From Candidatus Omnitrophota bacterium (lineage in GTDB: Bacteria; Omnitrophota; Gorgyraeia; Gygaellales; Gygaellaceae), in assembly GCA_018400015.1 (NCBI GenBank), contig JAGYNB010000001.1, positions 264,124 through 328,123 of the forward strand: a stretch of DNA of 64,000 nt, given 5' to 3'. Under the pieces are notes generated by a model. It had not been told where the DNA came from, did not search any database, and worked only from the letters and a program-made list of their open reading frames with translations. Each line of letters begins with the position of its first letter. Position 1 is the stretch's first letter. Both the position numbers and the translations under genes were made by a program. Shown here one piece after another: positions 7,297 through 49,139 of this stretch.

Positions 7297-10200
7297 ATGA
7301 ATCAAGCTGTCCAAAAAAGATTATCTGCAAAATACAACAAATTAAATTCATTCACCATGTATAAAACTACAATCGACTCTATGGCTGATGCCATACACGT
7401 CATTGATCGGGATTTTAATATTGTCATATTCAATAAACAATTTAAAAGATGGAACCGTATTCTAAAACTAGAGACTAAAGCTGTGGGAAAGAAGCTTTTT
7501 GATATTTATCCATTCTTGCCAAAGAAAGTTTTGTATGAGTATAAACAGGTTTTTGAAACGGGAAAGGTTTTATCTACAGAAGAATCCAATGTTATAAACA
7601 ATAAAGAATATGTTACTGAAACACGTAAGATCCCTGTTGTCGAAAAAGGGGAAGTTGTAAATATTATTACCGTAGTGCGGGATATTACCGAGCGTAAAAC
7701 AAAAGAAAAAGAACTTCTGCTTAAGAATATGGCTATAGAATCTTCGATGGCAGGTTTTGCCATAGCGGATATGAAAGGTAAGCTGATTTCTGTAAACAAA
7801 GCCTTTTTAAAGATATGGGGATATAACAGTAAAAAACAGGTTTTGGGAAGACCGGTCAGTCAATTTTGGTTAACGGAAAGACAGGTTGTGGATGTCTTGC
7901 AAGACATAGGAGAAAATAGCGAGTATTTCGGAGAAATGGATGCAAAAAGAAAAAATGGTTCTTCTTTTGTCGCTAAGGTTTCAGCATGTCTTGTTAAAGA
8001 TAAAGATAATAAGTCCATTGCGATGATGGCTTATTTTATGGATGTTACCAAAGAAAAACAAATCAGAGAGAATTTAAAGGATTCGGAAGAAAAGTACCGG
8101 CTGGTTATGGAGAATATGAACGATTTGGTTTTTCAGATTTCTCCGCTTGGGTTCATTCAGTATGTAAGCCCGAAAGTTAAAGAGTTTTATGGTTATGATC
8201 CGCAGAAACTCATAGGCAAACATTTAAAGCAAACCACAGTTTTAAGTCAACTGCCTAAAGCTTTATTGATATTGAAACGTGTTTTAAGTGGTGATAGCAT
8301 AAGAGGTTTTGAAATAAGGCTTAAAGACAAAAAAGGTAAATCTACCGCAATGGAGATTAATATATCTCCGGTAATGAGTAATGGACGTATCATAGGTGCT
8401 CAAGGAGTGATGAGGGATGTTACCCACACCAGAAAGATTCAGCTTGCCATAAGAAAGAACGAACAGCTTCTTAAAGCTATTATAACCAACAGTCCAAACT
8501 GTGTTTATGCAAAAGATAGCAGGGACAGATTCATTTTAGTCAATAAAAAGATGGCTTCTTTGTTTTCGCTAACACCGGAGGATTTTATAAATAAAACCGT
8601 AGATGATATATTGAATAAGTTTGGTAAAAAGGCGAGAAATAAGTTTAAGAAGATGTTCGATACCGATAAGCAGGTTATCAGAGAAAAGAAAATAAGAGTT
8701 TATCCGCAGGATAATTTTGTATTTCCTAATGGGAAAGAACTTTGCTGTAGGGTGAATAAAATTCCTTTTGATACCGCTGATTACAGAAATTGTGTTTTAT
8801 GTATTGGGATCGATTTGACCGATTATAAAAAAGCTATTGAACAGGTAAGCCTTTTAAAGGAAAGAATAGAGTTTATTTTGGGAGCAACGAAAACCGGCCT
8901 AGATATTATCGACAGCGATTTTAATATTATTTATGTAGACCCGGTTTGGGCAAATAAATACGGTAATCCCATAGGCAGAAAATGTTATGAATATTTTATG
9001 AAACGTAAAACACCTTGTCTTGATTGCGGTGTGATAAAAGCTAAACGTACGAAAAAACCTGTAGTTTCAGATGAAGTCTTGGTTAGAGAAAAGAATAGGC
9101 TTGTGCAGGTAACAACTATTCCTTTTAATGACGGTAAAGGCAATCTGTTGTTTGCTGAGGTTAACGTCGATATCACCGAAAGAAAGAAATCAGAGGAAAA
9201 ATTGGCGGATTCCGAAAGAAGAATGGAAGAGCTTTATGAAAGCAGCCGTGATGGGTATGTATTCGTGGACATGCAAGGCAATGTAAAAGAATATAATAAT
9301 GCTTATAAGGATATGCTTGGCTATAGCGATAAAGAGATCGCCAAATTAAATTATAAAAAACTTACTCCTAAAAAATGGCACGCTATGGAAGATACGATTG
9401 TTAAAAATCAGATATTAAAGTACGGATTTTCCGAACTATATGAAAAAGAGTATATTAGAAAAGACGGTAAAGTTATTCCCGTAGAATTAAGGACTTATTT
9501 AGTAAGGGATGTTTTTGGTATGCCCGAGGGGATGTGGGCGTTTATTAGAGATATTTCGCGCAGAAAAGATATAGAAAATAAATTAAAACAGGCTTATGAT
9601 AGGTTAAAAACAACTCAGGACAGTCTTATCTTGTCAGAAAAACTTGCCGCATTGGGCAAGTTCTCATTAGGAATTGCTCATGAGGTAAAAAATCCTCTTG
9701 GTATTGCCCTGGGAGGAGTGGAATTCTTAGATCAAAAACTGGGCTCTAGTGATAAAGAAATTGCCATTACAACCAGCAAGATAAAAGACGCGCTTATGAG
9801 AGCGAATAAGATACTTTATTCGCTGTTGCAGTCGGCAAGGCCATCAAGTATGAATATCGCCGAAGGCGATATAAATGAATTGATTGATGATGTATTAAGC
9901 CTGGTAAGATTCAAGATCGATCCAAAAAATATAGTTATAGAAAAATCATATGCATTAGATTGTATAAATGTAATGATGGATAAATCCCAGATTCATCAGG
10001 TGATGTTTAATGTTTTTATGAATGCTATTGAGGCAATTGATAAAAAAGGCAAGATATCAGTAAAAACATATGTAAAATTATCAAACGATAACAAAAAACA
10101 ATGTGTGATAGAAATTATTGATACTGGCAAAGGGATAAAAAAGGATCATTTTTCTAAATTATTTGAGCCATTTTTTAGCACAAAAGACAAAGAAAAAGGT

Positions 10201-10317
10201 TTGGGGCTAGGGCTTATTATTGTTAAAAATATAATCGACAGGCACAAAGGGGCCTTTTCCATAAAAAGTCAGGCCAATAAGGGTACTTGTGTATTGGTTA
10301 CTTTACCTATGAACTAA
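7297..10317 (+). CDS. Multi-PAS sensor histidine kinase
   Basis: 1006 aa; several PAS/PAC-like repeats; H-box LGKFSLGIAHEVKNPLG; C-terminal HATPase_c (N, G1, G2 boxes: IIDTGKGI, GLGLGL). Confidence 0.85.
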   Translation: MNQAVQKRLSAKYNKLNSFTMYKTTIDSMADAIHVIDRDFNIVIFNKQFKRWNRILKLETKAVGKKLFDIYPFLPKKVLYEYKQVFETGKVLSTEESNVINNKEYVTETRKIPVVEKGEVVNIITVVRDITERKTKEKELLLKNMAIESSMAGFAIADMKGKLISVNKAFLKIWGYNSKKQVLGRPVSQFWLTERQVVDVLQDIGENSEYFGEMDAKRKNGSSFVAKVSACLVKDKDNKSIAMMAYFMDVTKEKQIRENLKDSEEKYRLVMENMNDLVFQISPLGFIQYVSPKVKEFYGYDPQKLIGKHLKQTTVLSQLPKALLILKRVLSGDSIRGFEIRLKDKKGKSTAMEINISPVMSNGRIIGAQGVMRDVTHTRKIQLAIRKNEQLLKAIITNSPNCVYAKDSRDRFILVNKKMASLFSLTPEDFINKTVDDILNKFGKKARNKFKKMFDTDKQVIREKKIRVYPQDNFVFPNGKELCCRVNKIPFDTADYRNCVLCIGIDLTDYKKAIEQVSLLKERIEFILGATKTGLDIIDSDFNIIYVDPVWANKYGNPIGRKCYEYFMKRKTPCLDCGVIKAKRTKKPVVSDEVLVREKNRLVQVTTIPFNDGKGNLLFAEVNVDITERKKSEEKLADSERRMEELYESSRDGYVFVDMQGNVKEYNNAYKDMLGYSDKEIAKLNYKKLTPKKWHAMEDTIVKNQILKYGFSELYEKEYIRKDGKVIPVELRTYLVRDVFGMPEGMWAFIRDISRRKDIENKLKQAYDRLKTTQDSLILSEKLAALGKFSLGIAHEVKNPLGIALGGVEFLDQKLGSSDKEIAITTSKIKDALMRANKILYSLLQSARPSSMNIAEGDINELIDDVLSLVRFKIDPKNIVIEKSYALDCINVMMDKSQIHQVMFNVFMNAIEAIDKKGKISVKTYVKLSNDNKKQCVIEIIDTGKGIKKDHFSKLFEPFFSTKDKEKGLGLGLIIVKNIIDRHKGAFSIKSQANKGTCVLVTLPMN

Positions 10318-10332
10318 AACAGGAGACGTTAG

Positions 10333-10701
10333 ATGAAAAAAATAATGATAGTTGATGATGAAAATGATTTTTGTTTTTTTATCAAGAAAAACCTAGAAAT
10401 TACCAAGTTGTTTGAGGTTGTAGTTTGTACAGATGCAAACAAAGCATTTAACGAGATAAAGAAAGAAAAACCAGACCTTGTTATTTTGGATGTGGCTATG
10501 CCTGGTAAAGATGGCAGCCAGATTGCTCAGGAAATAAAAGAAGATCCTGATCTTGTAAACCTGCCGTTTATATTTTTGACAGCTTTAGTTACTGGAGAAG
10601 AAGCAAAAAGGCAGGCTGATCAGAGTAAACGCCAGTATATATTCGCCAAACCTGTTGAAATACAAAGTCTTATCACCGCAATAAACAGAATTTTGAATTG
10701 A
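10333..10701 (+). CDS. Response regulator, receiver domain only (CheY-like)
   Basis: 122 aa; MIVDDE...LDVAMPGKDG with conserved Asp; no output domain. Confidence 0.8.
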   Translation: MKKIMIVDDENDFCFFIKKNLEITKLFEVVVCTDANKAFNEIKKEKPDLVILDVAMPGKDGSQIAQEIKEDPDLVNLPFIFLTALVTGEEAKRQADQSKRQYIFAKPVEIQSLITAINRILN

Positions 10702-10730
10702 TCTGAAGTAATTCTAAGAAAGTTTAACCC

Positions 10731-10785
10731 TTGACAAGTGCAGGAAGTGTATGCTATACTTTAACTGGAAATGAAAATCATTTTC
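10731..10785 (+). promoter_or_regulatory. Promoter with putative Fur box upstream of fur
   Basis: TTGACA (10731-10736), 18-nt spacer, TATACT (10755-10760). 10770-10785 aATGAaAATCATTtTC matches the Fur-box core AATGATAATCATTATC with 2 mismatches, and is the perfect palindrome GAAAAT-c-ATTTTC. Confidence 0.4.
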
Positions 10786-10803
10786 AATAAGGGGATGAGA
10801 TAA

Positions 10804-11265
10804 ATGCGGTTTGGAAGAAGAGGTTTTTGTAAAGCATGGCAGGGTCAGATTAAAGATGCCGGGTATCGTTTAACTATACCCAGACAGGTTATTTTGGATG
10901 TGCTAGCAAATAACACCGGGCATCTAAGCGCTGAAGATATTTATTTAAAAGTGCATAAGATTTATCCTCAGATAGGCCTAACAACTATTTATAGGACTTT
11001 GGATTTGTTGGTTAGTGTGGGGGTTGTTTTAAAAAGCGATTTTGGAGATGGACGTGCGCGTTTTGAAATAAAAATAAAAGATAAAACACACCATCATCAT
11101 TTAATATGTACTAAATGTTCACGAGTAATAGATTATACGGATTTTATTGATAAAGAACTAAAACTTTTAGCCGAGACTAAAAAAGGGTTAAGTGAGAAGT
11201 TTGATTTTGAAATTACAGGCCATTTGATTCAATTTTACGGAGTATGTAAAGACTGCAGGTCTTAA
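10804..11265 (+). CDS. Fur-family metalloregulator (Fur/Zur/PerR)
   Basis: 153 aa; winged-helix N-terminus; HHHHLICTKC and CKDC metal-binding motifs. Confidence 0.8.
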   Translation: MRFGRRGFCKAWQGQIKDAGYRLTIPRQVILDVLANNTGHLSAEDIYLKVHKIYPQIGLTTIYRTLDLLVSVGVVLKSDFGDGRARFEIKIKDKTHHHHLICTKCSRVIDYTDFIDKELKLLAETKKGLSEKFDFEITGHLIQFYGVCKDCRS

Positions 11266-11281
11266 AACAAAGGAGGGTATT

Positions 11282-11650
11282 ATGCCTAGAGGAGACGGAA
11301 CAGGTCCTATGGGACAGGGTTCAATGACAGGAAGAGGTTTAGGCTATTGTGCTGGTTTTAATGCACCAGGATATGCCAATTCAGGTTTTGGCAGAGGATT
11401 TGGTATGGGTGCAGGTCGCGGTATGGGAAGAGGCAGGCGCAACTGGTTTTACCAGACAGGGCTTCCTGGATGGGTAAGAGCGGGTTATGGTATGAGCGCT
11501 TACGGCAATCCTTATATGTCTGCCAACCAAGCTTATGCACCTTCAAAGAAGGACCAGCTTGATTATTTAAATAATGAAGCTGAAAGTTTAAAGGCAAGGT
11601 TAAAGGATATAGATTCTCAGATCAATAGTCTAGATAAGCAAGAAGAATAG
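11282..11650 (+). CDS. DUF5320-like glycine-rich / coiled-coil protein
   Basis: 122 aa; Gly-rich GRGxGMG repeats then a C-terminal coiled coil. This architecture commonly precedes NifB/NifX-like genes in anaerobes. Confidence 0.55.
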   Translation: MPRGDGTGPMGQGSMTGRGLGYCAGFNAPGYANSGFGRGFGMGAGRGMGRGRRNWFYQTGLPGWVRAGYGMSAYGNPYMSANQAYAPSKKDQLDYLNNEAESLKARLKDIDSQINSLDKQEE

Positions 11651-11670
11651 GTAAACTAAAAGGAGATAAT

Positions 11671-12060
11671 ATGCGGTTTGCAATATCTACTGACGCAGGT
11701 GAGGTGTCTGCACATTTTGGCAGGTGCCCGTCTTTTACAATCGTTGATATTGAAGAAGGGATAGTAAAAAGTAGGACTATAGTGGCTAATCCAGGACATC
11801 ATCCAGGACATATTCCTAAATTTCTGCATGATAAGGGTGTAAATTGCGTTATTGCCGGCGGAATGGGTATGAATGCAACTAATTTATTCAATCAGTTTGA
11901 TATAAAAACGGTTGTGGGCGCGGTTGGTTCTATTGATGAGGTGGTTGAAGCCATACTTAAAGGTAATTTAACCGCTGGTGAAAGTACATGCAAACCTGGA
12001 CAGGGCAAAGGATATGGTTTGGATAAGACTGTCTGCGATCATGAAGACGGTCATGACTAA
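11671..12060 (+). CDS. NifB/NifX-like 'dinitrogenase FeMo-cofactor biosynthesis' domain protein
   Basis: 129 aa; AxHFGRCPxFTIVD...VIAGGMGMNA motif of the PF02579-type fold. Confidence 0.7.
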   Translation: MRFAISTDAGEVSAHFGRCPSFTIVDIEEGIVKSRTIVANPGHHPGHIPKFLHDKGVNCVIAGGMGMNATNLFNQFDIKTVVGAVGSIDEVVEAILKGNLTAGESTCKPGQGKGYGLDKTVCDHEDGHD

Positions 12061-12074
12061 CAGAAGGAGAGATA

Positions 12075-12440
12075 ATGAAAGTTTGTGTTAGTGCTCAAGG
12101 CGATAATTTAGATTCAAGCGTTGATCCGCGTTTTGGCCGTTGCCAGTATTTTGTTTTTGTTGATACGGATACTTTGGAATTTGAAGCTGTTAATAATCCC
12201 AACATTACCGGTATGGGCGGAGTGGGCATACAGTCAGCCCAGTTTATTGTCTCTAAAGGAGCAGAAGCTGTTCTTACGGGCAATGTCGGGCCGAACGCTT
12301 TCACTACATTACAGGCAGCTAATTTAAAAATCATTACTGGTGTAGCGGGCTCGGTAAAAGAGGCAGTGGATAATTATAAAAACGGAAAATACAATTCTAC
12401 AAACGGTCCCAGCGTAGATTCTAAATTCGGGATGTCTTAA
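12075..12440 (+). CDS. NifB/NifX-like 'dinitrogenase FeMo-cofactor biosynthesis' domain protein (paralog)
   Basis: 121 aa; DPRFGRCQYFVFVD...VLTGNVGPNA, same fold as the upstream gene. Confidence 0.7.
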   Translation: MKVCVSAQGDNLDSSVDPRFGRCQYFVFVDTDTLEFEAVNNPNITGMGGVGIQSAQFIVSKGAEAVLTGNVGPNAFTTLQAANLKIITGVAGSVKEAVDNYKNGKYNSTNGPSVDSKFGMS

Positions 12441-12451
12441 ATAATGCTATT

Positions 12452-13312
12452 ATGATAATATCAGTTGCAAGCGGCAAGGGTGGAACAGGTAAAACAACTG
12501 TTGCTGTTAATTTGGCTTTGTCTTTGGATGAAAAGCTGCAGTTTTTAGATTGCGATGTTGAAGAGCCTAATGCCCATTTATTTCTAAAGCCTAAAATAGA
12601 ACATGTCCAGCCGAGTTTTATTAAGGTGCCTGAGATAGATGAGTCTAAATGCAGTCTCTGCGGTAAGTGCCAGTCTGTTTGTCAATACAATGCATTAGCG
12701 GTTATGCCTAAAACCGATAAGGCAAGCGGCAAGGTTATGGTTTTCCAGCAACTTTGCCATGGCTGCGGTGGATGTATGTTGTTATGTCCTGAAAAAGCAA
12801 TAAAAGAAGTTGATAGGAAAATCGGCGTTGTGGAAATAGGCAAAGCCAAAGATATTGATTTTTTCCACGGGAAACTCGACATATCGGAACCTATGGCTCC
12901 TCCTTTAATCCGCCACGTCAAAAGATATATTGATAAGAATGCATTAGTTATCAGTGACTGTCCGCCAGGTACTTCTTGTCCTGTGGTTACGGCAGTCAAG
13001 GGAAGTGATTTTTGCCTATTGGTAACTGAACCAACGCCATTTGGCCTGCATGATTTAACCCTAGCTGTAGAATTATTAAGGATAATTCATGTAAAATTTG
13101 CTGTTGCAATCAATAAATCAGGTGAAACAGATAATATAATTGACGATTACTGTAAAAAAGAGAACATCCCTATATTATTAAAGCTTCCTTTTGATAAAAA
13201 AATAGCCTCAGCTTATTCTAAAGGCGAGAATATCGTAGAGGTGTTCAAAGAATACAAAAACAATTTTAAAGGTCTATTTAATTCAATAAAAACAATAGTA
13301 AACAATAAATGA
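12452..13312 (+). CDS. MinD/Mrp-family P-loop ATPase with inserted 2x[4Fe-4S] ferredoxin domain
   Basis: 286 aa; deviant Walker A SGKGGTGKTT; two CxxCxxCxxxC motifs (CSLCGKCQSVC, CHGCGGCMLLCP). Confidence 0.8.
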   Translation: MIISVASGKGGTGKTTVAVNLALSLDEKLQFLDCDVEEPNAHLFLKPKIEHVQPSFIKVPEIDESKCSLCGKCQSVCQYNALAVMPKTDKASGKVMVFQQLCHGCGGCMLLCPEKAIKEVDRKIGVVEIGKAKDIDFFHGKLDISEPMAPPLIRHVKRYIDKNALVISDCPPGTSCPVVTAVKGSDFCLLVTEPTPFGLHDLTLAVELLRIIHVKFAVAINKSGETDNIIDDYCKKENIPILLKLPFDKKIASAYSKGENIVEVFKEYKNNFKGLFNSIKTIVNNK

Positions 13313-14163
13313 AACAGATACTTGTTATAAGCGGCAAGGGTGGAACAGGTAAAACAGTATTGTCTGCTTCGTTTGCATCGTTAGCAAAAAAATGCGTAGT
13401 TTCCGATTGTGATGTGGATGCGGCGGATTTACATCTATTGCTTAGGCCAAAGGTAAAAGAAACAATTAATTTTAAAAGCGGTAAAAGCGCCAATATTGAT
13501 GAGAATTTATGCATAAAATGCGGCAAATGCATTAATTTTTGCAGGTTTGATGCTATTACCAGTGACATTAGAATTGACCATGCTTCCTGTGAAGGTTGCG
13601 GTGTATGTACTTATTTTTGCCCTGTTTCGGCGATTAAGATGATAGAAAACGAATGTGGAGAGTGTTTTATATCCGATACTCGTTATGGCACCATGGTCCA
13701 TGCGCGGCTGGGGATTGCTGAAGAAAATTCCGGCAAGCTGGTGAGCCTGGTGAGAAAAAAATCTCAGGAGATAGCTGCGGAACAAAATTGCGAGTTTTTG
13801 ATAATTGACGGGCCTCCGGGAATAGGTTGTCCGGTTATTGCTTCTCTTTCCGGTGTGGATGTTGCGGTTATTGTAACTGAGCCTACCTTATCGGGTTTGC
13901 ATGATGCAAAAAGAGTAATTGAGGTGGCGCGCCACTTCAAAGTTGCAGTTAATTTAGTAATAAATAAGTTTGACCTTAATCTGGATATGACTAAAACCAT
14001 AGAAGGCTATTGCAGTAAAAATAATATTAGGTTGTTGGGTAAGATTGCTTTTGATGAAGCATTTGTTAAAAGCCTTATTGAGGTAAAGCCGATAGTAGAG
14101 TGTGAGTATAGCAAGGTAAATAAGGATATAGTGGATATTTGGCAGAAGTTAGCTTATAATTAA
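13309..14163 (+). CDS. MinD/Mrp-family P-loop ATPase with inserted 2x[4Fe-4S] ferredoxin domain (paralog)
   Basis: 284 aa; SGKGGTGKT; CIKCGKCINFC and CEGCGVCTYFCP; start overlaps the stop of the upstream paralog. Confidence 0.8.
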   Translation: MKQILVISGKGGTGKTVLSASFASLAKKCVVSDCDVDAADLHLLLRPKVKETINFKSGKSANIDENLCIKCGKCINFCRFDAITSDIRIDHASCEGCGVCTYFCPVSAIKMIENECGECFISDTRYGTMVHARLGIAEENSGKLVSLVRKKSQEIAAEQNCEFLIIDGPPGIGCPVIASLSGVDVAVIVTEPTLSGLHDAKRVIEVARHFKVAVNLVINKFDLNLDMTKTIEGYCSKNNIRLLGKIAFDEAFVKSLIEVKPIVECEYSKVNKDIVDIWQKLAYN

Positions 14164-14168
14164 AAATA

Positions 14169-14960
14169 ATGAAAGAACAAAATTTTAAATATATCTATGG
14201 ACCTGTTTCCAGCTGGCGGCTGGGAAGTTCGCTCGGAGTTGATCCTATATGTACGCGTGGCAAGGTATGTTCTTTTAACTGCATTTATTGCCAGATAGGC
14301 AAGACAACAAAGCTAACTACCAAAAGAGAGGTTTTTGTAGACGCGGATAAGATTGTAAGCGAGATAAAATTACTGCCCAAAAGAAGAATCGATTATATTA
14401 CTTTATCCGGTATGGGAGAGCCGACTTTAGCAGCGAATTTATCCGAGATTATAAAAAAAATCAGGAGAATACGCAAAGAAAAAATTGCCGTAATCACCAA
14501 TTCTTCTCTTTTAGGCGATAAAGATGTCAGAAGAGATTTATCCTTGGTGGACTTTGTGATTGCAAAATTAGACGCTCCCAATGAATGGATATATTCTAAG
14601 ATCAACAGGCCCTATGGACTGGTGAAGTTTAATGATATAGTAAAAGGTATAAAGAATTTTAAAAAAACTTTTAAGAAAAAACTTGCTATACAGATAATGT
14701 TTACTGCTATCAATAAGGATTTTGCTTTAGAGTTGTCGCGTTTGGTTAATTCGATTAATCCCGATGAAGTGCAGATTAATACCCCCTTAAGGCCTTCGAA
14801 GATAGAGCCTTTAATCAAGAAGGAGTTAAAGAAGATCACGGATATTTTCAAAAAAACCTGCAAGAAGATAAATGTTGTGAGCGTTTATGATGTTAAAAAG
14901 AAGAAAGTGGAATCAATCAGCCAGCCGGATACCTTAAGAAGAAGAGGTAAACCTTATTAG
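14169..14960 (+). CDS. Radical SAM protein (small, single domain)
   Basis: 263 aa; CSFNCIYC CxxxCxxC motif near the N-terminus; GMGEPT SAM-binding motif. Confidence 0.7.
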   Translation: MKEQNFKYIYGPVSSWRLGSSLGVDPICTRGKVCSFNCIYCQIGKTTKLTTKREVFVDADKIVSEIKLLPKRRIDYITLSGMGEPTLAANLSEIIKKIRRIRKEKIAVITNSSLLGDKDVRRDLSLVDFVIAKLDAPNEWIYSKINRPYGLVKFNDIVKGIKNFKKTFKKKLAIQIMFTAINKDFALELSRLVNSINPDEVQINTPLRPSKIEPLIKKELKKITDIFKKTCKKINVVSVYDVKKKKVESISQPDTLRRRGKPY

Positions 14961-14963
14961 TTT

Positions 14964-15854
14964 ATGCAGACCTACCTAGATTGTATCCCTTGTTTTTTCA
15001 AGCAGGCAATAGAATCATCCCGCATGATCGGCGCCTCAAATAATGAACAGGAGTGCATTATAAGGGAGATTTCTCAATTGTTAGCTGAGGCTTCTTTTAG
15101 GCAGTCTCCACCTGAGATAGCAAGTTCAATCCATGCGATAATAAAGAAGGTTACAGGTAACCCCGATCCCTATAGGCAGATTAAAATTAAAAGCAATAAG
15201 AAAGCTTTGAAGATTTATCCAAAGTTAAAAAGAATTGTAAAGAGTAAAGCCAACAGGCTTTTAATAGCAACAGAGCTGGCTATTGCCGGCAATATCATTG
15301 ATTACGGGGTTAAAAATTCTCTTAATGTTGAAGAGGAGCTAAAGAAAATATTAGTTCAGGAAGAGCAAAATCTTAAAAAGAAAAAAAAGTTTTTTGATTT
15401 TTCTCATTTTGAAAAAGACTTAAAGAAAGCCGATAGAATTGTTTATTTGGCTGATAATGCAGGCGAGATTGTTTTCGACCGTGTATTATTAGAAGAGATT
15501 AAATCACTTTTTCCAAAGAAGAAGATTTATTTTGTTGTAAAGGAAAAACCGATTATAAACGATGCCTTGGCCGGTGATGCTTTGTTTTGCAAGATCGATA
15601 AATTTACCGAGATTATCTCTTCCGGATTAGACACTCCCGGCACTGTTTTGGCTAGATGCAGTAAAAGTTTTTTAAATATTTTTAATAAAGCGGATATGGT
15701 TATCAGTAAAGGCCAGGGCAATTTTGAGTCGTTAAGTTCATCAAAAAAGAAAATCTACTTTTTATTCATGGCCAAATGCCCTGTAGTTGCAGATAGCATT
15801 GCTTGTCAGGTAGGCGATATTAACTTAGTCAATAGCAGTCTGAGAAGATTATAA
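14964..15854 (+). CDS. DUF89 / ARMT1-like (damage-control phosphatase family) protein
   Basis: 296 aa; the LADNAGEIVFD and VISKGQGNFE motifs are typical of the DUF89 metal-dependent phosphatase fold. Confidence 0.55.
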   Translation: MQTYLDCIPCFFKQAIESSRMIGASNNEQECIIREISQLLAEASFRQSPPEIASSIHAIIKKVTGNPDPYRQIKIKSNKKALKIYPKLKRIVKSKANRLLIATELAIAGNIIDYGVKNSLNVEEELKKILVQEEQNLKKKKKFFDFSHFEKDLKKADRIVYLADNAGEIVFDRVLLEEIKSLFPKKKIYFVVKEKPIINDALAGDALFCKIDKFTEIISSGLDTPGTVLARCSKSFLNIFNKADMVISKGQGNFESLSSSKKKIYFLFMAKCPVVADSIACQVGDINLVNSSLRRL

Positions 15855-15866
15855 ATAAAAAGTATT

Positions 15867-16580
15867 ATGCATAAAATATTATTGATTAAACAGGGTTCAA
15901 CCAAAAAAGACCGTTCTCTTCGCAAATGGGGATTAAGTTTTTTAATCGATGATGATATCATATTCGATACTTTTGGCTCAAGAGAAGATCTTATTGCAGA
16001 GATTAAAAGTTTATCGATAGATTTAAACAAAATACGTCATGTAGTTATCTCACACGATCACTGGGATCATATAGAAGGGTTATCCTACATATTAGAAAGA
16101 AATAAAGATCTTACCGTATACCTGCCGTTTAAAACAAATGAAGATTTAATAAACAAAATTATCTCTTCCGGAGTAAATTTAGAATTAGTAAATCAAAGCA
16201 TAAAGATAAAAGATGGTATTTTTGTAAGTAAGCAGATGGTTAATGCTTTGGATAAAAATACCGTTTTTGAGCATTGTCTGGTGATTGATACAACAGAGGG
16301 TTTGGTTGTGATTACAGGCTGTGCGCACCCTGGGATTGATTATATGGTAAAAGAAGTAAAGAATGATTTTAAAAAGCGGATCAGGTTGTTAATTGGCGGA
16401 TTTCATTTGAAGAATGAGCCGGAAGATAAAATAAGAGCGGTTATAGACAGGCTTATTGTTCTTGGCGTAAAAGAAGTTGCGCCAATCCATTGTACAGGGG
16501 AAGTTGCTACAGGTTTATTCAAAGAGTATTTTAAGGATAGATTTATCGATTTAATTAATTCCCGCCAGGTTACAGTTTAA
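15867..16580 (+). CDS. MBL-fold metallo-hydrolase
   Basis: 237 aa; ISHDHWDHIEG metallo-beta-lactamase zinc-binding motif. Confidence 0.7.
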   Translation: MHKILLIKQGSTKKDRSLRKWGLSFLIDDDIIFDTFGSREDLIAEIKSLSIDLNKIRHVVISHDHWDHIEGLSYILERNKDLTVYLPFKTNEDLINKIISSGVNLELVNQSIKIKDGIFVSKQMVNALDKNTVFEHCLVIDTTEGLVVITGCAHPGIDYMVKEVKNDFKKRIRLLIGGFHLKNEPEDKIRAVIDRLIVLGVKEVAPIHCTGEVATGLFKEYFKDRFIDLINSRQVTV

Positions 16581-16640
16581 TAGAAACCCTTAAATTTTAT
16601 TCGCAATAGTTTGTTGTTTTTGGTAGAATAATAAATAATT

Positions 16641-17384
16641 ATGAGAAAGAAAAGGAATATTTTTGTTGTTTTGTTTTTTTGTTTAGTGTTGTCATCATGC
16701 GCTTCTGCAGTAGTTAAGCCTGTTTCTGGGCCTATTTATCAGCCGCCTGCTCCTGTAATAAGGGCTAATATAACCCATACGGTAGCACCTGGTGAAACTG
16801 TCTGGCGTATAAGCAAGATGTATGATGTACCGATGAACGATGTCATCAGATACAATAATATCAAAAGGGTGGATGATCTGAAGATGGGGCAGAAATTAGT
16901 CATTCCTAATGCCGCACCGATTAAGCCGGTTATTACTCTTTATCCGTCCCGAAAATGGAAATATATCATAATCCACCACAGCGCTACTGATGAGGGCAAT
17001 GCATTTTGTTTTTATAATTCACATAGAAAAAGAGGCTGGAAGGACTTGGGGTATCATTTTGTAATCGATAATGGCACTAAAGGAAAAACCAATGGCCAGA
17101 TTGAGACGTCTTCTCGTTGGCTTAAGCAGGAAGACGGCGCTCATTGTAAGGCCAATAATATGAATTCAAGGGGAATTGGAGTCTGTTTGGTGGGAAATTT
17201 TAGTAAAGAAAGATTATCAGACAAACAAATGGATTCTTTAGTTTATCTGGTCGATACTTTAAGAAAGTATTACGGGGTTCCTTTAAGCAATATCCTTGGC
17301 CATGGTCAGGTAAAAGGTGCAAGGACAGAGTGTCCGGGAAAACTTTTCCCCTGGTCTGAATTCAAAAGAAGATTATCGCAGTAA
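16641..17384 (+). CDS. N-acetylmuramoyl-L-alanine amidase (Amidase_2/PGRP) lipoprotein with LysM domain
   Basis: 247 aa; signal peptide + lipobox LSSC; LysM (HTVAPGETVWRISKMY...GQKLVIP); amidase_2 motifs IIIHHSAT...GYHFVIDNG...CPG. Confidence 0.8.
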   Translation: MRKKRNIFVVLFFCLVLSSCASAVVKPVSGPIYQPPAPVIRANITHTVAPGETVWRISKMYDVPMNDVIRYNNIKRVDDLKMGQKLVIPNAAPIKPVITLYPSRKWKYIIIHHSATDEGNAFCFYNSHRKRGWKDLGYHFVIDNGTKGKTNGQIETSSRWLKQEDGAHCKANNMNSRGIGVCLVGNFSKERLSDKQMDSLVYLVDTLRKYYGVPLSNILGHGQVKGARTECPGKLFPWSEFKRRLSQ

Positions 17385-17408
17385 TATTTTTTAAAAAAGG
17401 AGGCTGTT

Positions 17409-17864
17409 ATGAAGGCAAAAGAGATAATGTCGAAAAATGTCATTACAGTCTCACCTAGCGACGATGCCCAAGATGCTTTAGGTTTATTACAGAGAAAGCG
17501 CATAAGCGCCCTTCCGGTTGTAAATGAAAAAGGCGAAGCAATAGGGATGTTTAGTGAAAAAGAGATTCTTTCTTTTGTTTTTCCCAGTTACATCCAGCAT
17601 GTAGGTAATTTTGTTTATGAAGAAAACCCCAAGTCAATCAAGAAAAAATTCAACGAACTAAAAGGTGTTCCTGTTAAAAAACTTATGCGTGATGGCGTGC
17701 TTACGATAAATGAAAACGCTACGCTTTGTGAGATAGCCCGTATCATGATGACGGAAAAATCCCGCAGAATATGCGTTATCGATGATAATAATAAGCTTTT
17801 AGGCATAGTTGGCCGTTGTGATGCCATAGCTGCTTTTATCAAGGAAGCAGAAGAGGCAAAATAA
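17409..17864 (+). CDS. CBS-pair domain protein
   Basis: 151 aa; two CBS motifs (VITVSP...ALPVVNEKGEAIGM; VLTINENATL...RRICVIDDNNKLLGIV). Confidence 0.75.
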   Translation: MKAKEIMSKNVITVSPSDDAQDALGLLQRKRISALPVVNEKGEAIGMFSEKEILSFVFPSYIQHVGNFVYEENPKSIKKKFNELKGVPVKKLMRDGVLTINENATLCEIARIMMTEKSRRICVIDDNNKLLGIVGRCDAIAAFIKEAEEAK

Positions 17865-25148: not shown

Positions 25149-25927
25149 ATATTAAAAAGAGAATAATTAGTAATTTCTATAAAAAAGATATATTGCTGGA
25201 TATGTCTTTCAGGCAGATGCGGTTAAAATATGCCGGAGCCAAATTGGGTTTATGGTGGGCTGTTATTTCTCCTTTTATTCTTGCTTTGAGTATTAATTTT
25301 GTTTTTAGACATGCTTTCAAGATCAATATTGATAATTTCGCTTTTTTTGTACTTTCAGGGATTATCCCCTGGATTTATATTACCAATACCTTATCTGAAT
25401 CAACAAGCGTATTAATTAATGATGCTTCATTGGTAAGACAAGGATCAATTCCTATAGAGTTTTTGCCGTTTTCTACCGCTCTTGCCAATTTATTGATTTT
25501 TCTTATAGGTATGTTGTTTTTATTGCCTTTTTTTATCATAATCAAATATAACATAGTATTTATGTTGTGGTTTTTACCATTTGTTATACTGATGCATTTT
25601 ATGTTTTTGACAGGGTTAGCGTTATTTGTATCATTTATAAATGTTTTTGTCAGAGATTTTTCCCATCTATTGAATAGTATTTTTATGGTTTGGTTTTGGG
25701 TGACTCCAGTATTTTATTCGCTGGAAATGATTCCTTCTTCATATAGATGGGTTTGTTTATTAAACCCCGTGACTTATTACGTTATAATGTACAGGGATAT
25801 TTTGTTTTACGGGCAATTACCAGATTTAAATATTATTCTCGCTGGTTTGTTCATCGCGATGGTATCTTTATTGTCTGGGTATAGCACATTTATCAAAAAT
25901 GAGTTTTCAATTTTAAAACGATTATGA
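25145..25927 (+). CDS. wzm: ABC-2 type polysaccharide exporter permease (Wzm/TagG/KpsM-like)
   Basis: 260 aa, 6 TM; ABC-2 family signature region; translationally coupled to the downstream ATPase. Confidence 0.75.
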   Translation: MNIKKRIISNFYKKDILLDMSFRQMRLKYAGAKLGLWWAVISPFILALSINFVFRHAFKINIDNFAFFVLSGIIPWIYITNTLSESTSVLINDASLVRQGSIPIEFLPFSTALANLLIFLIGMLFLLPFFIIIKYNIVFMLWFLPFVILMHFMFLTGLALFVSFINVFVRDFSHLLNSIFMVWFWVTPVFYSLEMIPSSYRWVCLLNPVTYYVIMYRDILFYGQLPDLNIILAGLFIAMVSLLSGYSTFIKNEFSILKRL

Positions 25928-27984
25928 ATGCGCTAAGTTTTAATAAAGTAAGTGAAAAGTACCGTATTAAGTTTGTTGAAAACGGTATAGTTTCTTGGGA
26001 GGAAATATGGGCCTTAAGAGATATAAGTTTTAATTTGAAAAAGGGAGAGGTGTTAGGTTTAATCGGACATAATGGTGCCGGTAAGACTACGTTACTAAAA
26101 TTGATATCAGGAGCAATTGTTCCTGATGAAGGGGTTATTGATGTTGTTGGCAGGATCTCTGTATTGATGGAGCTGGGTATAGGGTTTAATCCGGAGTTTA
26201 CTGGCAGAGAAAATATTATTTTCAATGCAAAAATATATGGATTTAATGAGGAAAGCTTAGCGGTTAAGATTGATAAGATAATCGAATTCGCGGATTTAGG
26301 CAGATTTATAGACTCGCCAATAAAATATTATTCTCAAGGCATGTATATGCGTTTGGCATTTGCCTTGGCTATATTTGTTGATCCGGACATACTTTTAATC
26401 GATGATATTTTAGCCGTGGGTGACGAAGATTCTCACAGAAAGTGTATAAGTAAAATATTTGAATTGAAAGCATCTGGTAAAACCATAGTTTTGGTAACTC
26501 ACGATATAACTATGGTGGAAATGCTTTGCGATAGAGTGATTCTGTTGGAAAAAGGGAGAAAGATTAAAGAGGGATTACCAAAAGAGGTAACCAGATATTA
26601 CCTTCAGGCATGCCAGGCCCGCATTAAGGCAAAGCAGGAAGAAGAGACCAGGCTTCTTCGCCAGCAGCGTACGATAACAAATGGTGACATAAGCCTCTAT
26701 GCTGATGTCGAAAGCAAGGCCTTAAGAATTTACCATAAGGACAAGGAAATAACCAATGGCAACGGCCTGCATAGTTCCTTTTTGATAAATGATATATGGT
26801 ATGAATTCCAGGCAGATTGGGAAATAGAAAAGATTGATGAAGGCGTCTTGAAGGTGGGTATGCATTTTGATAGTTTTATTCAGAATATAATCTTAACGCT
26901 GAATCAGGGCGTGTTGGAAATAAATATTGAATATAGTGTTCTAGAAAATAATAATTTGGACAGTTATCATATTAAGTTTGAGTTTGCCGATAGTTATAAA
27001 ACTTGGTTTTGTCATGACGACAGAGGGAGTTTTGATGTGCAGGATTATATAGATTATGCAGCTCCGGTACGCTTAAAAGATAATAAAGTGAGTAAAATTG
27101 CTTTTATTCATGGAGAAAAAACTGAGATTCCTTCCCTTTTGATCGAAGTTTTATCGGATTTAGACAAGAGAATAGCTTCTCTTTATCGTAGAAATGATTT
27201 ATCGTGCGAGAGGGTTTGTTTTCAGTCTAGTTTTATTGTTCCCCGGATGAAAGGTTTTTCAGAAAATTATAGCGGTGCGTTTCAAGCAAAAATTAATTTT
27301 AAAGATAAAATAGAAGAATCTGAAATTACTGATAATAAATTGGAATTTATATATCAGCTTTCAAATGGCGATCTCGATTTTATCTTCGATCGTGGTAAGG
27401 GGAAAATAATTTATAGAGGCAATGAATTAACGTCTGGATTGGGATTTTATACCACTGTTCGTTCAAAAGGGATGTGGTTTGATTCTTCGCAAGCGTTTTG
27501 GAAGGTTGAAAAAAAGAGCAAGAACAAGATTGAATGTTTTGGCCAGTGGTTTTATCTTCCTATTTTACAGAGATGGAGTATTTGTGTAGGCAAAAAAGGT
27601 ATTGATTTTGATATAAGGATGGATATTCCTGAGGAATGCATAACAGAGCTAAGGCACTCAGCATTGATGTTAAGTAACAATTATAAAAAATGGTTCGTAA
27701 ACGATAATATTTTCGGCGATTTTTTGGAAGAATATCATGAAGAATACGATACTATTCCTTTTCGTTTTTGGAGTGGCAATACCGCTGTGCTTGCTGCTTT
27801 ATCTGCAAAAAAGAACTTTCCTCAGGTATTTTTTAAAAGCAAGAATTGTCCATTGGCAATAGTGGAAAATAGTGAATCTATTTATTGGGCAAGGAGATTT
27901 CAGTTTCAGTCTAAAACGGATAATAAGGTAAGCTTGGGCAATAAAGGCATATTTTTTGCAGGCAAAATAACGATCAATGATTAG
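25924..27984 (+). CDS. wzt: Polysaccharide ABC exporter ATPase (Wzt/TagH-like) with ~430-aa C-terminal extension carrying two copies of a putative glycan-binding domain
   Basis: 686 aa; Walker A GHNGAGKTT, signature YSQGM, Walker B LLIDD within the first ~250 aa. The C-terminal extension has two related ~120-aa modules: W.EFQADWEIEK...YKTWF and WFDSSQAFWKVEK...WFYLPILQRWSI...YKKWF. Confidence 0.8.
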   Translation: MNALSFNKVSEKYRIKFVENGIVSWEEIWALRDISFNLKKGEVLGLIGHNGAGKTTLLKLISGAIVPDEGVIDVVGRISVLMELGIGFNPEFTGRENIIFNAKIYGFNEESLAVKIDKIIEFADLGRFIDSPIKYYSQGMYMRLAFALAIFVDPDILLIDDILAVGDEDSHRKCISKIFELKASGKTIVLVTHDITMVEMLCDRVILLEKGRKIKEGLPKEVTRYYLQACQARIKAKQEEETRLLRQQRTITNGDISLYADVESKALRIYHKDKEITNGNGLHSSFLINDIWYEFQADWEIEKIDEGVLKVGMHFDSFIQNIILTLNQGVLEINIEYSVLENNNLDSYHIKFEFADSYKTWFCHDDRGSFDVQDYIDYAAPVRLKDNKVSKIAFIHGEKTEIPSLLIEVLSDLDKRIASLYRRNDLSCERVCFQSSFIVPRMKGFSENYSGAFQAKINFKDKIEESEITDNKLEFIYQLSNGDLDFIFDRGKGKIIYRGNELTSGLGFYTTVRSKGMWFDSSQAFWKVEKKSKNKIECFGQWFYLPILQRWSICVGKKGIDFDIRMDIPEECITELRHSALMLSNNYKKWFVNDNIFGDFLEEYHEEYDTIPFRFWSGNTAVLAALSAKKNFPQVFFKSKNCPLAIVENSESIYWARRFQFQSKTDNKVSLGNKGIFFAGKITIND

Positions 27985-34661: not shown

Positions 34662-36042
34662 TAATTTAATTAGTTATTTGGATGTATTTTTCCAAAAAGA
34701 TTGCTTTGAAAGAATAAATTCAATTATTGATCCGGATAGCCTTCAATTTAAGCCTGCCAAAGAAGTTTACGAAGATTTAAGATATTATGTGTCTAGATTT
34801 AAGACTAACAAATTCGAATTTAACAGTTATTGCAATTTAAATACGGGTTTTCTATCAAAATTGTGCGATTTGATTATTAACGCTGATTTCTGTATCAAGT
34901 GGTCGAGCCCCGCAGTTTTCAAAAAGGATTTTAACGAAGATAATATTCTACAATTAAAGAAATCAGGATGTTATAGACTTGTTTTTGATTTGTTCTCTGC
35001 ATCGGATAATTTTCTTGAAAGAATGAAAATACCTTTTGACAGCCGAGTGGTTATAAATATATTGCAAAAGTGTAAAGAGCATGGGATTGATGTTGGAATT
35101 AGGTTGTTGTTTTATCATCCGCAGTCAGATATAACTGATTTTGATAACACATTGGAGTTTATTCGTTTAAATTCAGAATATATCAAGGAGATATCCTGCG
35201 TTGACTTATGTATTAGCTCTTTTTTGCGACAGCCTAGATGCAGGAATTTTTATTCCTGCAAAGGCGATAGTAATAATAATTATTCTTCTTTGGCTAAGCG
35301 CATCATGAAACCTTACCGCATAATCAAAGATTTAGGTATTCCGGCGGTTGTTTTTTCTCCATCTGAACAGCAGTTTGATTTAATCAATAGTTTCTTTACT
35401 CGCCACGTAATTTGTAACAGAAATTTATCTTTAGTTTTTGATGGCGGTTGTTGCCATATTTTCTGGAAGAATATGCGCTTAACTAAAGGTTTCGGAATAT
35501 ATACATCTATTTTTGCTTTAGGTAATTGGCAAGATTCTCGGCAGGTCGATTGGAAATTTGTCTGTAAAGACAATTCTAGCATAGTTGTTGTTGGCAATTG
35601 GAAATTCTTGCCTATAGTACAGCAATGGCGTATAGAGATGTTTGCTGAAAATAAGATTTCTTTTTGTGTAACTATGGAAATCAAGGATGGTATCATTATA
35701 GATGGTGAACAGCAGTTTAATGTCATGTTAGACTCAGTATATAAAAGCTGGTTTTTCTCTAAAGATCTTTCCAATATTTTTCCAGAATTTTTTAACAAAG
35801 AGTGGGTTAATTTATTTGAGAAAACAATTGAACACGCTGATTGTATTGGCGTTGAGGCAAATTCTGAAAAATTCCCTGATTTGAGATTGCGCTGCGATTT
35901 TTTCCATGGAAGAAAGCTGGCCGTATTGAACACGCCATTAGAGTTTAGTTCCAGAAAGCTTAAGGCATATTTTTTCGACATGAATAAAAAACCACCAGGG
36001 GAAATAGTTTATTTTAAAGGAGAGATTTTAATTGGCAAATAA
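34651..36042 (+). CDS. Degenerate radical-SAM-like (no CxxxCxxC) protein fused to Wzt-CTD-like domain
   Basis: 463 aa; residues ~90-190 align to the distal half of the B12-rSAM barrel of ORF 36032 (LKKSGCYRLVFDLFSASDNFLERM... vs KAGCTRLCYGIESASDDVLKRM...) but the Cys triad is absent. Residues ~255-380 carry NWQDSRQVDWKFV...WKFLPIVQQWRI...YKSWF. Confidence 0.5.
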   Translation: MESNNLISYLDVFFQKDCFERINSIIDPDSLQFKPAKEVYEDLRYYVSRFKTNKFEFNSYCNLNTGFLSKLCDLIINADFCIKWSSPAVFKKDFNEDNILQLKKSGCYRLVFDLFSASDNFLERMKIPFDSRVVINILQKCKEHGIDVGIRLLFYHPQSDITDFDNTLEFIRLNSEYIKEISCVDLCISSFLRQPRCRNFYSCKGDSNNNYSSLAKRIMKPYRIIKDLGIPAVVFSPSEQQFDLINSFFTRHVICNRNLSLVFDGGCCHIFWKNMRLTKGFGIYTSIFALGNWQDSRQVDWKFVCKDNSSIVVVGNWKFLPIVQQWRIEMFAENKISFCVTMEIKDGIIIDGEQQFNVMLDSVYKSWFFSKDLSNIFPEFFNKEWVNLFEKTIEHADCIGVEANSEKFPDLRLRCDFFHGRKLAVLNTPLEFSSRKLKAYFFDMNKKPPGEIVYFKGEILIGK

Positions 36043-38002: not shown

Positions 38003-38021
38003 GCAAAAAAATAATAAAATT

Positions 38022-48486: not shown

Positions 48487-48909
48487 ATGAAACTTATCAC
48501 AAGACACACGGCTTATGCGGTGGGTGCTATACTTTTTGCCGCAAAAAGCAAGCAAGATATAATTTCTGTTGAGGAATTTTATAAAGGAACCCGTATTCCA
48601 AAAGCTTTTTTAAGAAAGATCCTGCAGATTTTGAGTAAGAGGAATATATTCAGTTCTTTTAAAGGCAAACAAGGCGGTTTTCGTTTAAGGAAAAATTCGA
48701 ATCAGATATCTTTAATAGATATAGCTGATATTTTCCAAGAAGGTTTGAAGATAAACGAGTGTTTTTTCAAGAAAAAACTTTGTGATAGCGAAAAGAATTG
48801 CGCCTTAAAAAAGAAAATCGATGACATAGAAAGAATGGTTGTAAAAGAATTAGAAAGTATTACAATAGCCTCTTTATTAAATTACAATAAAAGAAGGAGA
48901 TTAAAATGA
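48487..48909 (+). CDS. Rrf2-family transcriptional regulator
   Basis: 140 aa; the [12 protein letters not shown]...[21 protein letters not shown] winged-HTH is typical of Rrf2 (IscR/SufR-like); stop overlaps the nifU-like start. Confidence 0.75.
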
Positions 48910-49127: not shown

Positions 49128-49139
49128 CATGTTAATTTT

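Follow-up and report, generated by a model that had tools for sequence, protein, structure and literature searches.

The 64,000-nt stretch analysed here (the window; Candidatus Omnitrophota bacterium, contig JAGYNB010000001.1) carries a gene for a Fur-family regulator followed by a DUF5320 gene, two genes for proteins of the Nitro_FeMo-Co (Di-Nase) family, NifX1 and NifX2, and two genes for MinD-like ATPases with inserted ferredoxin domains, ATPase1 and ATPase2. These genes probably form an orange protein (ORP) type operon of an anaerobic bacterium, controlled by the dedicated Fur-family repressor that its first gene encodes, with Fe2+ the probable metal, and serving in the handling of Fe-S or heterometal clusters. 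The ORP system is known; the variant of it that is headed by fur recurs across phyla. The first-pass annotation of this DNA had placed six open reading frames on the + strand and named their families, and the open reading frame check and the family matches confirm this. It had also called the module functionally uncharacterised, which does not hold, as the module corresponds to the known and partly studied ORP complex of Desulfovibrio (PMC6345978, PMC8359166). Control by a metalloregulator was proposed as a special feature of this DNA. The operon is indeed headed by fur and its operator is conserved, but the arrangement is not peculiar to this genome and is found at 15 of 80 DUF5320 loci.

The near-consensus promoter that had been claimed is present at 10731-10760. 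It consists of TTGACA, an 18-nt spacer and TATACT with a TG extension, matches 11 of the 12 sigma-70 consensus positions and is the top sigma-70-like site within 10200-17500. A Fur-box-like palindrome is present as well, and the AATGAAAATCATTTTC at 10770-10785 that was first proposed lies within it. The core, TGAAAATCATTTTCA at 10772-10786, is a perfect 7-1-7 palindrome and the sole exact copy in the window, situated at about +5 to +20 relative to the inferred transcription start. Read directly, it agrees with the classical E. coli Fur box at 15 of 19 positions. Perfect 7-1-7 palindromes are not rare in the window (12 copies, at 35% GC), with approximately 0.02 expected in the 102-nt spacer upstream of fur. 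The case for operator function therefore rests on conservation across phyla. In a scan with a position weight matrix (PWM) built from 14 fur-upstream sites, the operator at 10769-10789 scores 29.2 bits, being itself one of the 14 training sites. Elsewhere in the window the mismatch search and the PWM show only low-scoring intragenic matches, at 10356, 52451 and 401. An Rfam scan of the whole window gave no RNA family, so that neither a riboswitch nor a leader accounts for the conservation at the 5' end.

A one-genome-per-species scan with the DUF5320 profile provided 80 loci for analysis (of 468 confirmed stretches), totalling 874 kb in the PWM scan. Thirteen of the 14 further Fur-headed loci among them display a box with no more than three mismatches to the window 15-mer, the only probe used, at 25-35 nt before fur. 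The palindrome is conserved between the -10 element and the ribosome-binding site upstream of orthologous fur-DUF5320 operons at no fewer than 14 loci of different phyla. The layout common to 14 loci, which include Omnitrophota, WOR-3, Poribacteria, Planctomycetia, Auribacterota, Atribacterota and others, consists of cTTGACA, 17-18 nt, a TATAAT-like hexamer, 5-8 nt, the box, an AAGGAG-like ribosome-binding site and the fur ATG. The box consensus over the 14 loci is TAATG[G/A]AAA[C/T]CATTTTCAATA. The box of the Poribacteria locus is identical to that of the window, and that of the Auribacterota locus, GATAATGAAAATCATTATC, is one mismatch from the classical Fur box. The DUF5320 protein shares 80% identity with its counterpart in 'Candidatus Gygaella obscura' (Omnitrophota); the spacer upstream of the fur gene there is mostly diverged, with the -35 hexamer, TGnTATACT and the block GGAAATGAAAA[T/C]CATTTTCAATAAGG retained. 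In the 874 kb, PWM matches of 20 bits or better lie upstream of fur and in the fur-DUF5320 spacers of the same loci. Loci without fur show no box at this threshold, with L046 as the single exception. Judged from these sequence comparisons, the predicted operator at 10772-10786 is real and conserved across phyla.

Ten loci (L007, L008, L011, L013, L015, L052, L055, L058, L066 and L071) carry a second box in the fur-DUF5320 spacer, 14-50 nt after the fur stop codon. It is usually inverted and immediately precedes the DUF5320 ribosome-binding site. Neither these spacer sites nor the L066 site were in the PWM training set. No obvious promoter separates the two boxes, and the second operator could be an internal roadblock through which repression is tighter for the module than for fur. 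A second operator is missing from the window and from Ca. Gygaella, as the 16-nt spacer between fur and DUF5320 leaves no room for one.

An unbiased metagenome scan with the 19-mer AATGRAAAYCATTTTCAAT gave at least 120 sites, and 46 of the 120 listed adjoin fur, DUF5320 or another module gene. Among the matches listed, 30 box-adjacent genes for Fur-family proteins are informative. Twenty-one of these precede the module, eight are Zur-like with Cys in the sensor region, and one is a conventional Fur with FeoA/FeoB behind it. Three of the eight Zur-like genes have ZnuA (PF01297) as the next gene, identified by Pfam in two cases and by eye in one. At three low-GC metagenome loci (L117, L176, L197) the 19-mer box also precedes the gene of a conserved membrane protein, about 366 aa long and carrying His-rich motifs (HDCDGHAHGHNEH), which a Fur-family protein may likewise regulate in response to metal.

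The identity of the module follows from its four core proteins. NifX2 has as its best PDB match 2WFB, the ORP of D. gigas (2.6e-20). NifX1 matches MrpORP's C-terminal Di-Nase domain (NCBIfam NF041136 positions 265-365, 8e-28, 97.7 bits against a cut-off of 450) and displays HFGRC and a C-terminal CDH; the motifs HFGxC and C-terminal CDH are described for that domain (PMC6345978). The orp cluster of Desulfovibrio sp. X2 consists of an OrpR-like sigma-54 activator, followed by ORP, ATPase A, ATPase B and a second Di-Nase protein. Amino acid identities to this cluster are 43% for NifX2 and ORP (5e-27), 39% for ATPase1 and ATPase A (8e-80), 46% for ATPase2 and ATPase B (3e-88), and 39% for NifX1 and the second Di-Nase protein (7e-15). 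The best matches are one-to-one, and those of the ATPases are reciprocal. Thus the core of the module is orthologous to the orp cluster, and on these similarities it is no anonymous module but the ORP system studied in Desulfovibrio. That system is conserved in strict anaerobes. ORP binds a Mo-Cu-S cluster, MrpORP's Di-Nase domain binds an Fe-S cluster, and MrpORP matures Orp3/Orp4 (PMC6345978). In D. vulgaris the Fe-S sensor OrpR activates the orp operons when the redox potential is low and shuts them off upon oxidation (PMC8359166).

The two ATPases are of the CbiA/ParA type. As had been claimed, they are paralogues (35% identity) with two [4Fe-4S] motifs each, of the form CxxCxxCxxxC(P), and both carry a deviant Walker A sequence, GKGGTGKT. 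The published description of Orp3/Orp4 fits both (PMC6345978). A PDB sequence search with the ATPases gave separate MinD and polyferredoxin matches only, and no solved structure of the combined architecture. NifX1 and NifX2 had also been described as paralogues, and they are, but distant ones from different subfamilies (28% identity). A role in nitrogenase maturation had been doubted, and no nif genes are found among the larger window open reading frames scanned, which are most but not all of them. The Nitro_FeMo-Co fold family of NifX1 and NifX2 is shared with the NifB/NifX/NafY proteins of FeMo-cofactor maturation, but their nearest relatives are ORP and MrpORP, not NifX or NafY. The features of the operon are collected in Table 1.

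Table 1. Predicted genes and regulatory elements of the Fur-headed ORP operon (window positions).
Feature	Position	Strand	Remarks
-35 hexamer TTGACA	10731-10736	+	invariant in 14 orthologous Fur-headed loci
Extended -10 element TGcTATACT	10752-10760	+	hexamer TATACT at 10755-10760
Fur-family operator (predicted), 21-bp site AAATGAAAATCATTTTCAATA	10769-10789	+	perfect 7-1-7 palindrome core at 10772-10786
Ribosome-binding site AGGGGA	10790-10795	+	8 nt before the fur ATG; read directly
Fur-family regulator, 153 aa	10804-11265	+	PF01475, 6e-30
DUF5320 protein	11282-11650	+	PF17253, 9.5e-27
NifX1, Nitro_FeMo-Co (Di-Nase) protein like the MrpORP C-terminal domain	11671-12060	+	PF02579
NifX2, Nitro_FeMo-Co protein, ORP orthologue	12075-12440	+	PF02579
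ATPase1, MinD-like P-loop ATPase with inserted 2x[4Fe-4S] ferredoxin domain, Orp3/Orp4 type, paralogue A	12452-13312	+	
ATPase2, MinD-like P-loop ATPase with inserted 2x[4Fe-4S] ferredoxin domain, Orp3/Orp4 type, paralogue B	13309-14163	+	
Radical SAM protein, probable further operon member	14169-14960	+	5-nt spacer before; syntenic in Ca. Gygaella
DUF89/ARMT1-like metal-dependent phosphatase, probable operon member	14964-15854	+	1.8e-71; 3-nt spacer before
Metallo-beta-lactamase (MBL) fold protein, probable last gene of the conserved unit	15867-16580	+	12-nt spacer before

The single strand and short spacers noted earlier are correct: from fur through DUF5320, NifX1, NifX2 and ATPase1 to ATPase2 the spacers are 16, 20, 14, 11 and -4 nt, the start of ATPase2 overlapping ATPase1 by 4 nt. 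As an argument for an operon this is weak. Almost every gene between 540 and 55869 is on the + strand with short spacers throughout, and co-direction and spacing thus say little. The tight spacing runs on beyond 14163 through the radical SAM, DUF89 and MBL genes, and the conserved unit probably extends to 16580. A 60-nt gap follows the MBL gene and contains a promoter-like site (16600-16629). A weak promoter-like site is also found within the operon, at 14132-14160. A terminator scan showed no convincing terminator inside the unit or at its end.

The Desulfovibrio ORP systems (D. vulgaris Hildenborough, D. gigas, D. alaskensis; Fievet 2011, PMC3897727, PMC6345978, PMC8359166) share with the window module a single-domain Di-Nase ORP (Orp8 in D. 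vulgaris Hildenborough), two MinD-like 2x[4Fe-4S] ATPases and a second Di-Nase protein like the C-terminal part of MrpORP, as well as an anaerobic host and a dedicated local regulator that heads the cluster. The regulators differ, however. The window displays a Fur-family regulator and a sigma-70 promoter, whereas Desulfovibrio uses the sigma-54 activator OrpR (DVU2106) and IHF. The window genes form one co-directional operon and the Desulfovibrio genes two divergent ones. The window Di-Nase protein stands alone, without the Mrp/NBP35 P-loop domain, in contrast to the MrpORP (Orp9) fusion of Desulfovibrio. There is no Mrp-type gene in the window operon, only the Di-Nase half of an MrpORP, and no protein like the Cys-rich [2Fe-2S] Orp5 of D. 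vulgaris was found with the window module. Unlike in the Desulfovibrio ORP operons, radical SAM, DUF89 and MBL genes are attached.

The slot before ORP is taken by DUF5320 in the window and by a Gly/Arg/Gln-rich 112-aa protein in Desulfovibrio sp. X2. An equivalence of DUF5320 with Desulfovibrio orp7 was rejected for Desulfovibrio sp. X2, where hhalign gave a probability of 2.5% and the 112-aa protein has no Pfam match. Two genes without a Pfam match lie between the OrpR-like activator and ORP in that genome (L204:5059-5900), namely that of the 112-aa protein and one for a Di-Nase-like domain to which a Gly/Arg/Cys-rich tail is attached. Cationic Gly-rich segments thus seem to be common to ORP clusters in general, including those that lack DUF5320.

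The 80 DUF5320 loci span Omnitrophota, Planctomycetota, Chloroflexota, Actinomycetota, Bacillota, Spirochaetota, Thermodesulfobacteriota and others. Beside DUF5320, the NifX2 type is found at 55 loci, the ATPase1 type at 48, the NifX1 type at 43 and the ATPase2 type at 41. MBL (22 loci), DUF89 (17) and radical SAM genes (16, six of them at Fur-headed loci) also recur there. Other recurrent neighbours are a SAM methyltransferase, TrmO_N, a FAD-dependent disulfide reductase, NifU_N/IscU, Mrp, DUF364 and a third Di-Nase-like protein that in many cases bears a Gly/Arg/Cys tail. Regulator-type neighbours vary by lineage: Fur at 15 loci, DUF134 at 14, a sigma-54 enhancer-binding protein at 12 and PadR at 8. 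The Fur-headed arrangement, counted at species level, thus recurs across phyla.

The regulator aligns with the H/E/H/H site of Fur (VcFur H33, E81, H88, H90) and with the second site H/D/E/H, the Asp of which is His here. The ligand candidates are H40, E88, H96-H99 and H140, and CxxC pairs for a structural Cys4 zinc site are present at C102/C105 and C148/C151. H40, E88, the HHHH run, H140 and both CxxC pairs are shared by the module-linked orthologues. These regulators share 54-59% identity across phyla, compared with 36% to the nearest other Fur. The subfamily is marked by a Trp-containing N-terminal arm, with (P)WWHG in most members and AWQG in the window protein, and by a 6-residue acidic insertion after the first CxxC (DFIDKE in the window protein). 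The module-linked Fur of an Atribacterota locus (L060:5884-6387) displays CHQH instead of HHHH and a Cys at the equivalent of H140, which hints at a changed sensed species in that lineage.

In the NCBIfam ranking the window regulator scores 127 bits with Bacillus Fur, 86 with PerR and 40 with Zur, all below the equivalog cut-offs. The PDB ranking agrees, with Furs best and Zur structures at 41-58 bits. The nearest relative outside the module is a feoAB-linked Fur that has the same box and the same ligand set (36% identity, 104 bits). Scores are 86 bits with E. coli Fur and 85 bits with B. subtilis PerR, 35-84 bits with Zur-like proteins that have the same box, and 53 bits with S. coelicolor Zur (ScZur; of the reference sequences, the one checked against the PDB). 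In the alignment with the ScZur sensor site (D65, C79, H85, H87), the positions of D65 and C79 are Leu and Lys in the window protein and variable in the subfamily; the ZnuA-linked regulators of the metagenome scan all carry the sensor Cys. The position of D85 in B. subtilis PerR is Glu in the window protein, and that of D104 falls inside the subfamily-specific insertion. B. subtilis Fur has Asp at the D85 position, and this residue therefore does not discriminate PerR from Fur. The earlier choice of Fur rather than Zur or PerR is borne out, as far as homology can tell, by the best NCBIfam and PDB matches, the retained H/E/H/H ligands and the absence of the Zur Cys. We infer a distinct Fur paralogue with a Fur-type sensor site and, judging from the ligand set, the metal sensed would most probably be Fe2+.

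The box has known counterparts. A delta-proteobacterial FUR box with the same 7-1-7 core, WTGAAAATNATTTTCAW, is predicted upstream of fur and feoAB, and the Desulfuromonas fur2-feoB1 site is tTGAAAATCATTTTCAg (PMC545781). The delta-proteobacterial sites lie 30-37 nt upstream of fur, as in the window (Rodionov et al. 2004, PMC545781). In those bacteria feoAB, porin and flavodoxin genes have the box upstream as well, which makes a global iron regulon, whereas the window box is found only at the fur-ORP operon, and the window regulator belongs to a separate subfamily with its Trp-rich N-terminal arm and acidic insertion. The actinobacterial Zur box is TAATGAAAATNATTTTCATTA (PMC4298942; Zur consensus in Table 2 of that paper). 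The operator and the recognition-helix motif GLTTVYRTL of actinobacterial Zur (M. tuberculosis/M. avium FurB, S. coelicolor Zur) are almost identical to those of the window. However, the window regulator is unlike these Zur proteins in having no D65/C79 M-site ligands, and no znuABC or ribosomal-paralogue targets are present. Since the delta-proteobacterial Fur and mycobacterial Zur boxes share the core, the box alone cannot name the metal.

The DUF5320 protein displays an invariant N-terminal motif, MP.GDGTGP.G.G..TGR..G.CAG, in which the invariant Cys is C23. Its N-terminal 86 aa (isoelectric point (pI) 10.4) contain 24 Gly, 8 Arg/Lys, 13 aromatic residues and one Cys. The AlphaFold 2 model shows N-terminal disorder and a single confident helix at 89-121 (mean pLDDT 58.7). 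IssA of Pyrococcus furiosus, a thioferrate iron-sulfur storage protein, has a 70-aa tail with a pI of 10.7, 15 Gly, 7 cationic and 14 aromatic residues and one Cys (PMC5524996). Common to both systems are an IPR003731/PF02579 globular domain and a single-Cys segment that is cationic, rich in Gly, Arg and aromatic residues, and probably disordered. In IssA the tail is on the same protein, whereas in the window it is a separate protein which also carries a coiled-coil helix, and neither NifX1 nor NifX2 has a C-terminal cationic Gly/aromatic-rich tail. The response of IssA to sulfur and iron depends on other regulators. The resemblance of DUF5320 to the IssA tail is one of composition only.

Several DUF5320 variants are found. 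L121:5104-5730, a metagenome protein, is a fusion of an ORP-like Nitro_FeMo-Co domain with a Gly/Arg/aromatic segment and a coiled coil that are like the C-terminal two-thirds of DUF5320; its domain E-value is weak (0.009). Together with the composition, this fusion suggests a possible split IssA-like arrangement. At L169:8069-8584 a module-type Fur is followed by two small proteins extremely rich in Trp, Tyr, Gly and Pro, the second of which matches PF17253 through its coiled coil and is an aromatic-rich DUF5320 variant. Others (P0005, P0010, P0012, P0021, L008:6881-7381 and more) have an extra N-terminal 24-residue copy, MP.FDGTGP.G.G..TGRG.G.C, before the full DUF5320. In L031 and L033 an RG-repeat tail replaces the coiled coil.

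The proposal that follows extends to repression, which metal is sensed, which way the operon responds, co-transcription of all nine genes and their biochemical role. Transcription would start from the strong sigma-70 promoter at 10731-10760, with the operator at 10772-10786 just past the -10 element and across the transcript start. The metal-loaded regulator dimer on the operator would block initiation or early elongation. A drop in metal would release the repressor and give more regulator together with DUF5320, the Di-Nase proteins, the ATPases and probably the radical SAM, DUF89 and MBL proteins. Judging from the biochemistry of ORP, MrpORP and IssA, labile clusters of the Fe-S or heterometal-sulfide kind would be bound, assembled or passed on by the operon's products. 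The NifU_N/IscU and Mrp genes that recur beside the module elsewhere count in favour of such a role. Fur-repressed suf operons are a parallel for the proposed derepression on metal loss.

Several points weigh against this proposal. The role of the ORP system, and the function of the Orp proteins, are still called 'unclear', and a link to cell division has been proposed (PMC8359166). Sixty-five of the 80 DUF5320/ORP loci have no fur, and some are headed by a sigma-54 enhancer-binding protein, DUF134 or PadR; Fur control is therefore not intrinsic to the module. OrpR turns the Desulfovibrio genes on at low redox potential (PMC8359166), whereas a holo-Fur repressor would do so when Fe2+ is scarce, possibly the opposite logic. 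The same box type is used by mycobacterial Zur (PMC4298942). Regulation by the module-linked Fur subfamily is a prediction for every one of its members. No iron-uptake gene (feo or siderophore; larger open reading frames scanned) and no second box are found in the window, and thus an iron regulon is not visible locally. The end of the operon cannot be read from the sequence either, as nearly all window genes are co-directional and closely spaced.

The regulator could instead sense a signal other than iron, namely zinc (Zur-like), Mn, Ni or Co (Mur/Nur-like) or peroxide (PerR-like), and the ORP module would then answer to that signal. The operator consensus is practically that of the mycobacterial Zur box (PMC4298942 Table 2). 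The eight Zur-like regulators beside metagenome boxes, three of them followed by ZnuA, point the same way, as do the sub-threshold NCBIfam matches and the near equality of B. subtilis PerR and E. coli Fur (85 and 86 bits). The His/Glu ligand set of Fur, Mur and Nur, moreover, is not metal-specific. Zinc is disfavoured by the Leu and Lys at ScZur D65/C79, where all znuA-linked regulators in the scan have Cys, and by the far lower scores of Zur models and structures (40 bits in NCBIfam, 41-58 bits in PDB). The B. subtilis PerR box is TTATAAT, which the G at position 2 of the window box does not fit, while it does fit Fur and Zur; and the rubrerythrin, superoxide reductase and VIT1 genes of the window show no box. 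A non-iron signal is thus rather unlikely, but it is the alternative with most in its favour. That the box simply autoregulates a general-purpose fur, the downstream genes being expressed separately and with no functional tie, would agree with the common autoregulation of fur genes from a box about 30 nt upstream (PMC545781). The dense co-directional packing of the window, in which short spacers prove little, and the weak promoter-like site at 14132-14160 would also allow it. Such incidental adjacency is nevertheless highly improbable given the 16-nt fur-DUF5320 spacer without a terminator, the recurrence of fur-DUF5320 at 15 of 80 species-level loci in many phyla, ten of them with a second box before DUF5320, the tight subfamily that the module regulators form (54-59% identity, against 36% to the nearest other Fur), and the 21 of 30 box-adjacent metagenome Fur-family genes, among the matches listed, that are followed by the module.

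The logic could also be reversed, with an apo-repressor or a metallated activator turning the operon on when iron and sulfide are plentiful, and DUF5320 and the Di-Nase proteins forming a split IssA-like store. The closeness in composition of the DUF5320 N-terminal part to the reported IssA tail (PMC5524996), the one natural fusion at L121 and the Gly/Arg tails of other cluster members would fit such a store, and expression under reducing conditions rich in Fe and S would agree with the logic of OrpR. However, an operator between the -10 element and the ribosome-binding site, combined with autoregulation, is the classical layout of a holo-repressor. The likeness to IssA does not go beyond composition and a single fusion with a weak domain match, and the DUF5320 model offers disorder and one helix only. 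We therefore consider reversed logic distinctly unlikely. Another proposal, which we regard as quite unlikely though slightly less so, is that DUF5320 and the ORP-like Di-Nase proteins form a split IssA-like Fe-S buffer, loaded and unloaded by the two Fe-S ATPases and set by the Fur paralogue through cytosolic Fe2+. DUF5320 would form multimers by way of its coiled coil, and its cationic Gly/Arg/aromatic arm would enclose an anionic Fe-S polymer or cluster carried by the Di-Nase domains.

The synteny with Ca. Gygaella is complete and runs ilvD, histidine kinase, response regulator, fur, DUF5320, NifX, NifX, ATPase, ATPase, radical SAM, DUF89, MBL. The segment directly upstream of the fur promoter in the window (7297-10701) encodes a histidine kinase of 1006 aa with multiple PAS domains and a response regulator consisting of a single domain. 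These were rejected as members of the system; they are syntenic only in Ca. Gygaella and absent at the other Fur-headed loci.

Two other regions of the window are of note. An iron/redox island at 48487-54668 contains, in order, an Rrf2-family regulator, SufC, SufB/D, a NAD-binding oxidoreductase, a desulfoferrodoxin-type superoxide reductase and a VIT1-family iron transporter, followed by PNPOx-like and FMN-reductase proteins and rubrerythrin. The PWM scan found no Fur-type box at this island, the best match (12 bits) being inside the VIT1 gene. At 25924-40571 an ABC-transporter ATPase fusion is followed by a run of very large radical SAM proteins. Three of them, of 789, 656 and 849 aa, are B12-binding, and another, of 1440 aa, combines three radical SAM domains with three SPASM domains; glycosyltransferase genes follow. 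This could be a peptide- or lipid-modification cluster. The many B12-binding radical SAM and SPASM enzymes in the window indicate a high demand of the organism for Fe-S clusters.

In the literature searched, the coverage of which is incomplete, nothing relevant was found on a Fur-ORP link, on the function of DUF5320 or on COG1149/COG1433 in Fur regulons. The ORP system has been studied for about 20 years in Desulfovibrio, and its sole known regulator, OrpR, is confined to delta-proteobacteria. In at least eight other lineages the orthologous core is headed by a dedicated, highly conserved putative repressor of the Fur family with one or two conserved operators. This is an independent clue that ties the ORP system to metal status, probably iron. 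DUF5320, the radical SAM protein, DUF89 and the MBL-fold protein join the list of conserved ORP partners. One operator type also appears to serve three Fur-family sensors, the module Fur, the feoAB-linked Fur and the znuA-linked Zur, which is a caution for regulon assignment from motifs only. The regulator and operator form a compact, defined pair, amenable to in vitro work without culturing the hosts. If the split buffer were true, it would be a widespread 'iron-sulfur ferritin' of anaerobic bacteria, in at least ten phyla, and would give the ORP complex its long-sought function.

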